64,000 bases of DNA from Escherichia phage Ec_Makalu_002. Shown piece by piece: positions 19,263 to 20,522 of the stretch. The position numbers and the translations under genes were made by a program. The notes beneath the pieces are model-generated. The model was given only the letters and a program-made list of their open reading frames with translations. It was not told the origin of the DNA and did not search any database. Numbering within the stretch: the first letter of the stretch is position 1; every line of letters begins with the position of its first letter. The stretch is from sequence record MN709127.1, one strand, 5' to 3'.

Positions 19263-19727
19263 TTATTGGTCTACCTTCAAAACAACAGCCGACATTTTAC
19301 CCGCCAGTCGTTTTGGATTCTCTATAATCATTCGGCAGCATAGACCGTGATACGGCTTACCATCTTCGATTAGATCTACTGTCATCCCGATCCACATGTT
19401 ACCGTCAGTAATTTCTAATCGATTAGGTCGGTCTTCCATTTTCAGGAAGTCGAAGATCTCCGGCAAACGAGTTTCTATCTTATTGAATAGTTCCATTGTC
19501 TTATGTTCATCGATATGACGATCGGTTAGACGGTCGATCATATGTGGACTAAAGCGAATGAAAATATACTCACCGTAACCATCATTCAAGCACTTTTCTT
19601 TGATCTGCGCATTGGTTTTGCGCATTTCGGTTTCGAAGAATCTACGCAGCTTACTACGGCGAACATGTACGTTAATTGTTTCCATTTTATTATCCTTTCT
19701 TAAACAAATTGCGAAGCCAGTATACAA
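19263..19727 (-). CDS. regB: RegB-like endoribonuclease (probable true start METINV)
   Basis: Motifs VRRSKLRRFFETE, RLEITDGNMWIG and CRMIIENPKRLAGK resemble T4 RegB as recalled; position relative to tk fits T4. Confidence 0.4.
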   Translation of the reverse strand: MYTGFAICLRKDNKMETINVHVRRSKLRRFFETEMRKTNAQIKEKCLNDGYGEYIFIRFSPHMIDRLTDRHIDEHKTMELFNKIETRLPEIFDFLKMEDRPNRLEITDGNMWIGMTVDLIEDGKPYHGLCCRMIIENPKRLAGKMSAVVLKVDQ

Positions 19728-20025
19728 ACGGGATTTCTTTAAACTTGAATTTCTCTATAGTTAATTCTTTAGTAGCAAGATGAATACCATAAGCATCATG
19801 TGTCACGATATGCCATTTTCTATAGTCCAAATGTGAACAACCGTCTGGATCTAGGTTAATAAGAGTTTCTCGCTCACTAGGATTATTTTTCCACAATTTT
19901 GTAACCGGATCGCACATAATTCGACCTAGTGTACCATGAATAATCTCACAACGGTAAAGTTTTCCTGCGGTGATATAGGCACACCCGTCATAGTCGGTAT
20001 AAACAAACACTTCTTTAACACTCAT
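19690..20025 (-). CDS. hypothetical protein, member of three-gene paralog family
   Basis: Shares ITAGKLY...DPDGCSHLDYRKW pattern with the ORFs at 20086-20346 and 20328-20522. Confidence 0.45.
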   Translation of the reverse strand: MSVKEVFVYTDYDGCAYITAGKLYRCEIIHGTLGRIMCDPVTKLWKNNPSERETLINLDPDGCSHLDYRKWHIVTHDAYGIHLATKELTIEKFKFKEIPFVYWLRNLFKKG

Positions 20026-20085
20026 TTTAATACTCCGTTGTTGTTTCGATGGGGGTATATTACTACCCCCGTTTCATGCTGTCAA

Positions 20086-20346
20086 CTACTTTTTCAAGAA
20101 TTTTTTTAGCACATTCCAAAGACCTTTATTCTCAGGTTGTTTTGGTTTTTCGATCAGTGTCCAAGATCGACCGTCTAAGTGAGCACAATTTTTAAGGCAG
20201 ATAAAAATCTGGTGTCCCTTATTATCACGGATATAACCACTATTCGCAAATCTTTCATGTGGTGTATATTCATACAGTGTATTCGGTGTAATATACTTGC
20301 GGTTACTATAAGGTGTCATCACATACATCATGGTACTAACTCCCAA
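20086..20346 (-). CDS. hypothetical protein, paralog family member
   Basis: GYIRDNKGHQIFICLKNCAHLDGRSWTL. Confidence 0.45.
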   Translation of the reverse strand: MGVSTMMYVMTPYSNRKYITPNTLYEYTPHERFANSGYIRDNKGHQIFICLKNCAHLDGRSWTLIEKPKQPENKGLWNVLKKFLKK

Positions 20347-20522
20347 CGATCACCGCGAAGATGAGAACATCTACCATCAAGAAGTATCGTAATACGAAAC
20401 CCCGCATCATCTTCAATATACCCGATAGTCGGTGGATGTTCGTCGTCTCGTGCCGGGGTAAAATCATACATCTTTCCCGGTGTGATATCAGTGCCTTTAT
20501 TGCTATTGGTATAAACTTGCAT
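20328..20522 (-). CDS. hypothetical protein, paralog family member
   Basis: ITPGKMYDF...GYIEDDAGFRITILLDGRCSHLRGDRWEL. Confidence 0.45.
   Translation of the reverse strand: MQVYTNSNKGTDITPGKMYDFTPARDDEHPPTIGYIEDDAGFRITILLDGRCSHLRGDRWELVP

Follow-up and report, generated by a model that had tools for sequence, protein, structure and literature searches.

Between small early open reading frames (ORFs) of the T4-type coliphages RB49 and phi1 lie promoter-early stem-loop (PeSL) elements, in which a strong σ70 promoter is combined with a polyG/polyC hairpin (Arbiol et al. 2010, PMC2839356). The hairpins terminate upstream transcription and act as recombination sites (PMC2839356). Another described system to which the present locus can be compared is Gp54 of phage Bas11 (PDB 9axb), a small, dispensable protein that sets off the CapRel-SJ46 defence and forms a six-stranded barrel, with the sixth strand in place of the SH3 3-10 helix (PMC11578894). 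Here we analyse a stretch of 64,000 nucleotides (nt) of Escherichia phage Ec_Makalu_002 (MN709127.1), hereafter the window, from an RB49/GEC-3S-like T4-type coliphage of the Krischvirus group. Our subject is three small genes, for which we use the shorthand P1, P2 and P3, located in the variable (hyperplastic) early-gene region together with a PeSL and regB. We show that P3, P2 and P1 each carry a copy of a single all-beta SH3-like domain of ~60 residues, arranged in tandem and diverged from one another.

Results

P1, P2 and P3 are paralogs

In order of transcription, on the minus strand, the locus reads nrdC.11, P3, P2, a PeSL promoter/hairpin cassette, P1 and regB. P3 (20328-20522, minus) encodes a bare SH3-like domain of 64 amino acids (aa), with an isoelectric point (pI) of 4.8 and the Shine-Dalgarno (SD) sequence AGGAGA. 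P2 (20086-20331, minus; 81 aa, pI 9.7) joins the domain to a cationic amphipathic C-terminal tail, GLWNVLKKFLKK. In P1 (19690-20025, minus; 111 aa, pI 8.3) a loop is inserted into the domain (~residues 40-52) and a further strand is added, and the protein extends C-terminally to end in the amphipathic tail FVYWLRNLFKKG. A preliminary description of this DNA had proposed three consecutive ORFs of 111, 86 and 64 aa as a tandem paralog family of unknown function next to regB. The ORFs are present (19690-20025, 20086-20346 and 20328-20522), on the minus strand, which that description left unstated; regB lies directly downstream (19263-19685), and the PHROG families matched by the three proteins carry no function. 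The 86-aa ORF exists, with a TTG start at 20346, but the ATG at 20331 gives the 81-aa protein called in six of the eight annotated records inspected. RB49 takes the 86-aa start, and the JSE form spans 270 nt, with a changed and longer C-terminus.

Similarity among the three proteins extends beyond chance. BLASTP aligns P2 with P3 at E 2e-11, P1 with P2 at 7e-4 and P1 with P3 at 1e-3, and Smith-Waterman scores compared with 2000 shuffles give z = 18, 3.9 and 4.4 for the same pairs. Each of the proteins matches phrog_6261, a profile built independently (P1 E 5.8e-37, P2 1.3e-5, P3 1.5e-27), and phrog_15978 matches P2 (E 5.4e-57) and P3 (3.1e-7). Applied to the six-frame translation of the window, a family hidden Markov model (HMM) recovered exactly P1, P2 and P3, with no further members. 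Because BLASTP, the shuffle z-scores, phrog_6261 and the family HMM agree, we regard the paralogy as real. Pairwise E-values of only ~1e-3 for P1-P2 and P1-P3 might be taken to mean that the similarity reflects chance or low complexity, or that the ORFs are not genes. That explanation is already refuted by the match of all three proteins to an independent PHROG profile, by the strength of the P2-P3 alignment, by a synonymous rate well above the non-synonymous rate across nine genomes (dN/dS 0.12-0.24), by a GGAG SD site on each of the three genes, and by a confident AlphaFold2 (AF2) model of P3 and hundreds of homologues.

The checks proposed in the preliminary description included alignment, HMM building and a search of other phage genomes. 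Alignment, the test on which the claim was staked, returned significant similarity; the HMM behaved as described above; and the family consensus matched 143 cultured phage records. Each of the common motif strings that had been listed holds for two of the three proteins, the third deviating: P2 has ITPNTLY rather than ITxGK, P1 has GRIMCD rather than GYI.D, and P3 has CSHLRGDRW, in which the R is shifted by one position. The earlier observation was essentially correct except for the strand, one start codon and a promoter claim discussed below.

Predicted fold and protein features

The AF2 model of P3, built from a 10-sequence alignment, is all-beta with a predicted local distance difference test (pLDDT) score of 92.6. 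P1 was modelled at 72.8, with residues 1-83 folded and residues 87-111 below 50. We compared the modelled domain with the SH3-like small-barrel fold as seen in eukaryotic SH3, KOW, PsaE and the integrase C-terminal domain: it has five strands, ~60 residues and a 3-10 turn before the last strand, and superposes on SH3. Structure matches in BFVD are all uncharacterised phage proteins. From the confident all-beta model and these structure matches we assign the predicted domain to the SH3-like small barrels, at the level of fold only. Searches of Pfam, NCBIfam and PDB sequences with P1-P3 and the family gave no significant match, and none of the canonical SH3 families in Pfam matched P1, P2, P3 or the family consensus at E<=1. 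DUF6501 (PF20111) gave recurrent sub-threshold matches, the best family member (P0094) scoring 23.1 bits against a gathering threshold of 23.8 and P1-P3 giving no match; these may hint at a distant relative. Two other candidates were rejected. A FosA assignment for P1 rested on NCBIfam scores of ~16-18 bits against cut-offs of at least 180, and was dismissed as noise. A cold-shock domain, prompted by the hairpin GYI.DD.G..IFI and by the repetitive match P0051, received an hhalign probability of 0.9% against E. coli CspA.

The only conserved Cys/His ligands are C52 and H54, one of each, compared with the three or four of a zinc-binding site. In the AF2 model of P3 this C-x-H motif occupies the 3-10 turn leading into the last strand.

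In P1 and P2, the maximum hydrophobic moment of the whole protein falls at the extreme C-terminus (0.65-0.74, with P2 at 0.74), and the tails have a net charge of +3/+4. The P2-like paralog of a divergent T4-type relative (L006; ENA ERZ27235521 k119_34593, 4777-6449) likewise ends in a cationic amphipathic tail, bringing the range to 0.59-0.74 over the last 11 residues, and tails of a similar kind occur in other family members. P3, which is acidic, has no such tail. AF2 places a helix at residues 101-108 of P1, with pLDDT <50. MinD and FtsA have C-terminal membrane-targeting amphipathic helices, and the moment we computed for the FtsA tail is 0.78. The P1 and P2 tails, which are terminal and ~11 residues long, fall in this range; the likeness to MinD and FtsA is physicochemical only, without homology, and AF2 models the P1 tail with low confidence.

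Family size and distribution

When 1.84 billion representative proteins were searched exhaustively by profile, with clusters defined at 50% identity, 873 clusters were identified at E<=1e-3 and 38 at 1e-10, with proteins mostly of 58-72 aa. The family had been described as small, which is contradicted by these 873 clusters; they cover phrog_6261 and phrog_15978, which distant members also match, and the weaker relatives phrog_4927 and phrog_10169. The consensus derived from 165 domains (KMKVKTDYEGCDYLTAGKVYEV...FYITDDEGDEIFILLKGCAHLDGGNWEVV) follows the pattern (I/L)TxGKxY ... I.DD.G..I ... C(A/S)HL.G..W. Across these domains T, K, Y, I, D, G, C and W are conserved at 92% or above (Cys 95%), and H and L at 88%. 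The domain is usually acidic, with a median pI of 5.06 and 70% of domains below pI 6. Two of the window proteins, P1 and P3, belong to phrog_6261 and the third, P2, to phrog_15978, with cross-matches. PHROGs thus splits the paralogs into separate families, gives them no function, fold or name, and holds no record of the link between the three genes or of a superfamily of 873 clusters.

Five proteins have two or three domains in one chain, and about a sixth have other extensions. Fusion partners were considered as functional clues, and none is decisive: a DUF3850/ASCH domain (PHROG 986, "RNA-binding protein") occurs once, a Tad2-like match occurs once and is sub-threshold (E 8e-4), and an unnamed C-terminal domain ("TPKTWGEMTDAEKGALLLA"), found in 7 of 150 listed proteins, has no Pfam match. 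This last domain (TPKTWGEMTDAEKGALLLAHHEG ... YRIKPEPKRE), fused to the SH3-like domain in P0053, P0085, P0108, P0133, P0134, P0152 and P0164, weakly matches phrog_13152 and phrog_15048. We discounted the very long repetitive matches (P0033, P0064, P0069 and GhpA) as partial and spurious.

The 143 cultured phage records, found by tblastn with the consensus, are all annotated "hypothetical" at the match. They come from Krischvirus, Vibrio myoviruses of 133-141 kb, Pseudomonas Flaumdravirus, and Drexlerviridae of Klebsiella and E. coli. In Tequatrovirus we found no match at E<=1e-3 with the family consensus, the T4 genome not having been scanned by HMM. The metagenomic contexts examined are phage-like, with arrays of small early ORFs, nucleotide-metabolism genes (ThyX or ribonucleotide reductase (RNR)) or terminase, and no gene neighbour is conserved across the family loci examined in other phages. 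Two or more copies also lie close together in W011D, K50, L019 and L006. Closer to the window, the 2.1-kb stretch around P1-P3 is matched by 58 phage records at 90-99% identity, the best being Ec_Makalu_003 (99.0%). All records inspected among these are classified as Krischvirus (RB49, phi1, JSE, GEC-3S and others), and those inspected label P1-P3 "hypothetical protein", the P3 coding sequence in every case.

A PeSL upstream of P1

The cassette between P2 and P1 (20050-20085, minus) consists of a -35 element TTGACA (20085-20080), a 17-nt spacer and a -10 element TAATAT (20062-20057), with a stem-loop, GGGGGTA-gtaata-TACCCCC (20051-20070, minus), overlapping the spacer and the -10. The minus strand reads TAG-TTGACA-N17-TAATAT, then AACGGAGTATTAAA-ATG: the TAG stop of P2 abuts the -35, and the SD sequence GGAG and the P1 ATG come after the cassette. 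It scores 10/12 in a promoter scan, the hairpin RNA folds at -16.5 kcal/mol (z -4.2), and the GEC-3S record annotates a promoter at this position. The cassette is conserved in L006 and in a 3-kb metagenomic scaffold described below. Like published PeSLs (PMC2839356; PMC4122927), it has a consensus -35 separated by a 17-nt spacer from a -10 that is overlapped by a polyG/polyC stem-loop, and it is likewise intergenic between small early ORFs, with an upstream stop abutting and an SD sequence and start codon after it; we found no difference. Judged by these features, 20050-20085 is an instance of the already published PeSL element, with predicted promoter and attenuator activity. The P1-P3 ORFs are not discussed in PMC2839356.

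The GGGGGTA palindrome had been noted as a special promoter type, correctly, and placed ahead of two of the three genes. It stands ahead of P1 only; the start of P2 lies within the end of P3, and P3 begins 21 nt past the nrdC.11 stop. The window holds one other GGGGGTA palindrome (27728-27747), the core of a second PeSL (region 27700-27780, minus) 7.7 kb away that has the same orientation and is nearly identical over ~50 nt. With the first element it makes up a direct repeat, through which deletions or mini-circles could arise in the way described for RB49 and phi1.

The P2 ATG and the P3 stop overlap as ATGA, implying translational coupling. P2 and P1 are separated by a 60-nt spacer. Only 4 nt separate the P1 stop from the regB ATG, making P1 the first cistron of a PeSL-P1-regB unit. 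Neither P3 nor P2 is preceded by a recognised promoter cassette of its own, and both are probably read on the nrdC.11 transcript. We infer two transcription units, P1-regB from the PeSL and nrdC.11-P3-P2 downstream of a terminator-like hairpin (21296-21320) that lies upstream of nrdC.11. GGAG, the RegB cleavage motif, is present in the SD regions of P3, P2 and P1 (20525-20540, 20333-20345 and 20029-20040, minus) and at positions -18 to -4 of 26 of 100 ORFs in the window; regB itself has AAGGA. These SD sequences are consistent with early mRNAs that RegB could inactivate, which bears on regulation and not on protein function.

Selection and recombination

Mean pairwise dN/dS among nine Krischvirus genomes is 0.12 for P1, 0.17 for P2 and 0.24 for P3, compared with 0.06 for regB and 0.03 for nrdC.11. 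By this measure P1-P3 are genuine genes on which purifying selection acts, though less tightly than on their neighbours; positive selection on P1-P3 could not be shown with pairwise dN/dS. P2 (20086-20331 in the window; orthologues in L009-L014) exists as two deeply diverged alleles, with a dS of 0.64 as against 0.11-0.18 for P1, P3, regB and nrdC.11, and in the type-B allele CAHL has become CAYL, with Tyr substituted for His. P3 orthologues differ from one another mostly within the predicted loops, at positions 11, 24, 29 and 40.

Gene content also differs between relatives. In L006 the order is RlaP/nrdC.11, a P3-like gene, a P2-like gene (87 aa, with a similar basic tail), PeSL and regB; there are two clear family copies, and P1 is absent. 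A weak third family match in L006 (E 7e-5) lies upstream of RlaP. The 3-kb metagenomic scaffold L003 (ENA ERZ16268176 scaffold_28569) carries a P3/P2 hybrid gene at 45-296, encoding 83 aa, the 5' part of which is 99% identical to Brandy-type P3 and the 3' part of which matches Brandy-type P2 at 96% identity. P3 and P2 have a stretch of 18-20 nt in common, GGTTACATCAAAGATGAT, and the crossover lies within it. The hybrid is followed by PeSL, P1 and regB, leaving two family genes upstream of regB instead of three. Because of the L006 arrangement, the L003 hybrid and the P2 alleles, we attribute changes in copy number and gene content to homologous recombination involving paralogs and PeSLs. These genome comparisons show an array undergoing remodelling by homologous recombination between paralogs and at PeSLs, in agreement with the published model for the PeSL regions of RB49 and phi1. 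The family had been called diversifying, which is true only loosely, in the sense of allele replacement and paralog recombination, the main sources of its diversity; dN/dS values of 0.12-0.24 indicate purifying selection.

Neighbouring genes and their annotation

The gene upstream of P3, nrdC.11 (20544-21242, minus), is annotated as an RlaP-type nucleotidyltransferase, and its L006 orthologue matches Pfam RlaP. The downstream gene, regB (19263-19685, minus), is annotated as a site-specific RNA endonuclease; its orthologues match Pfam REGB_T4, and it is not a member of the P1-P3 family. In JK32 and Skers, P1 is itself labelled as the RegB endoribonuclease. P1 has no Pfam match at E<=1, and thus none to REGB_T4, and the label looks like an annotation error carried from the neighbouring gene. 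Likely errors of this kind extend across JK32, Skers, JEP8, ELT4, PHB13 and others, with the P1 orthologue named "endoribonuclease" and the RlaP-type nrdC.11 named thioredoxin or glutaredoxin.

Just upstream of the hairpin at 21296-21320 is a gene for a GrcA/YfiD-like autonomous glycyl-radical cofactor (21329-21745, minus; 138 aa), called vs.6 in RB49. JSE, JK32 and MIZ4 have a homing/HNH endonuclease gene directly upstream of nrdC.11 (L010 2159-2258; L013 2163-2266), at the place taken in the window by the GrcA-nrdC.11 spacer. Further downstream, vs (18220-18579, minus) and vs.1 (18587-19177, minus) have Sec-signal-like N-termini (MKKLTVIAMIAMMLSAGALA and MLKVLKAIVLSLSLAVGATHA). A signal peptide is odd for a "valyl-tRNA synthetase modifier", as vs is named; vs.1 has a weak SLT (lytic transglycosylase) match.

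Discussion

Taken as a whole, the locus is best explained, with a probability of about 0.55, by tandem SH3-like copies that serve as non-enzymatic binding modules made early in infection and acting on host macromolecules. We favour a non-enzymatic role because no enzyme signature was found and because the family has one conserved Cys and a replaceable His. We favour binding because the domain is usually acidic, because its fold is a classic interaction module, and because its copies are multiplied, in separate genes or in one chain, and its genes lie in early, dispensable regions. Early expression is suggested by the agreement of the PeSL features with those published (PMC2839356). Each protein would probably dock onto a host macromolecule, most likely a protein, and so aid takeover or counter defence. 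The loops, as the variable part, would set specificity, and multiple copies would add breadth or avidity; in other phages, single polypeptides carry the domain two or three times over. A putative cationic amphipathic helix at the C-terminus of P1 and P2 would tether these proteins to the inner membrane or another anionic surface, and P3 would act as a free acidic domain.

Several points weigh against this proposal. A literature search with RB49 locus tags and protein accessions returned no paper mentioning the P1-P3 ORFs, and the family contexts examined revealed no target and no conserved neighbour pointing to one. The tail of P1 is modelled with pLDDT <50, and a basic amphipathic helix could equally bind nucleic acid or protein; the acidity of the domain, for its part, does not exclude nucleic-acid binding. 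The P3/P2 hybrid comes from a single 3-kb scaffold and may be an assembly error.

The main rival is an RNA-linked role, which we consider unlikely: the proteins would be small RNA-binding barrels (of the Sm, KOW or Tudor-type SH3-like kinds) or partners of RegB or NrdC.11 and would modulate the fate of early mRNAs. Such a role would suit an RNA-centred neighbourhood (the RlaP nucleotidyltransferase, regB and vs) and the order nrdC.11-family-regB, which is kept in the divergent L006; family members in other phages, however, do not adjoin regB or RlaP. The overall pI is basic for P1 (8.3) and P2 (9.7), as are their tails, but P3 has a pI of 4.8 and 70% of family domains are acidic. There are KOW-type structural matches, while the cold-shock domain is unrelated (hhalign probability 0.9%), and the fusion of one family member to the DUF3850/ASCH domain of PHROG 986 is a single case. 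The RegB target GGAG is found in the SD regions of all of P1-P3 as compared with 26/100 window ORFs, but it marks the mRNAs as possible RegB substrates, not the proteins as acting on RNA. Highly improbable, in our estimate, is a metal-binding or redox/catalytic mini-protein that would use the Cys-x-His motif, either for a Zn site across a dimer or as a thiol enzyme tied to nrd/GrcA anaerobic nucleotide metabolism. The motif is strongly conserved (Cys 95%, His 88% of 165 domains), the genes lie between nrdC.11 and a GrcA-like gene in T4-type phages, and in one metagenomic phage a member stands beside ThyX and RNR genes. Yet a single conserved Cys and His are too few ligands for a Zn site in a monomer; the His gives way to Tyr in the P2 type-B allele and to Cys in the L006 paralog; and the C.HL motif appears to be missing from the W011D member. 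The position of the motif in the 3-10 turn before the last strand of the SH3-like barrel model fits a structural role. In addition, nrdC.11 encodes an RlaP nucleotidyltransferase and not a redoxin, and no Pfam enzyme or metal-binding family is matched.

To return to binding modules, a broader version can be entertained as a speculation, possible but not to be expected: that the SH3-like domain defines a large unnamed family of modular host-factor binders made early by phages, acting as counter-defence or takeover effectors, or being sensed by host immunity as Bas11 Gp54 is, with paralogs, hybrids and multi-domain forms varying specificity and tails sending P1 and P2 to the membrane. The family resembles Gp54 in fold only, with 6% identity, and profile and single-sequence PDB searches failed to reach Gp54 (9axb), even from family members in Drexlerviridae.

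The locus involves known kinds of elements, a small family of accessory paralogs within a hyperplastic region of a T4-type phage and a published PeSL. What is new is the definition of the family, its fold and spread and the evidence for recombination, with function inferred and no new mechanism. Host-takeover and anti-defence functions may well reside among the small accessory genes that T4-type phages carry in their variable regions, most of which are unstudied. Our analysis joins three "hypothetical" genes into one family, in a phage group that includes therapy candidates. That family is large, phage-borne in every context examined and uncovered by the current Pfam, NCBIfam and PDB libraries, and is a reasonable target for a Pfam entry.

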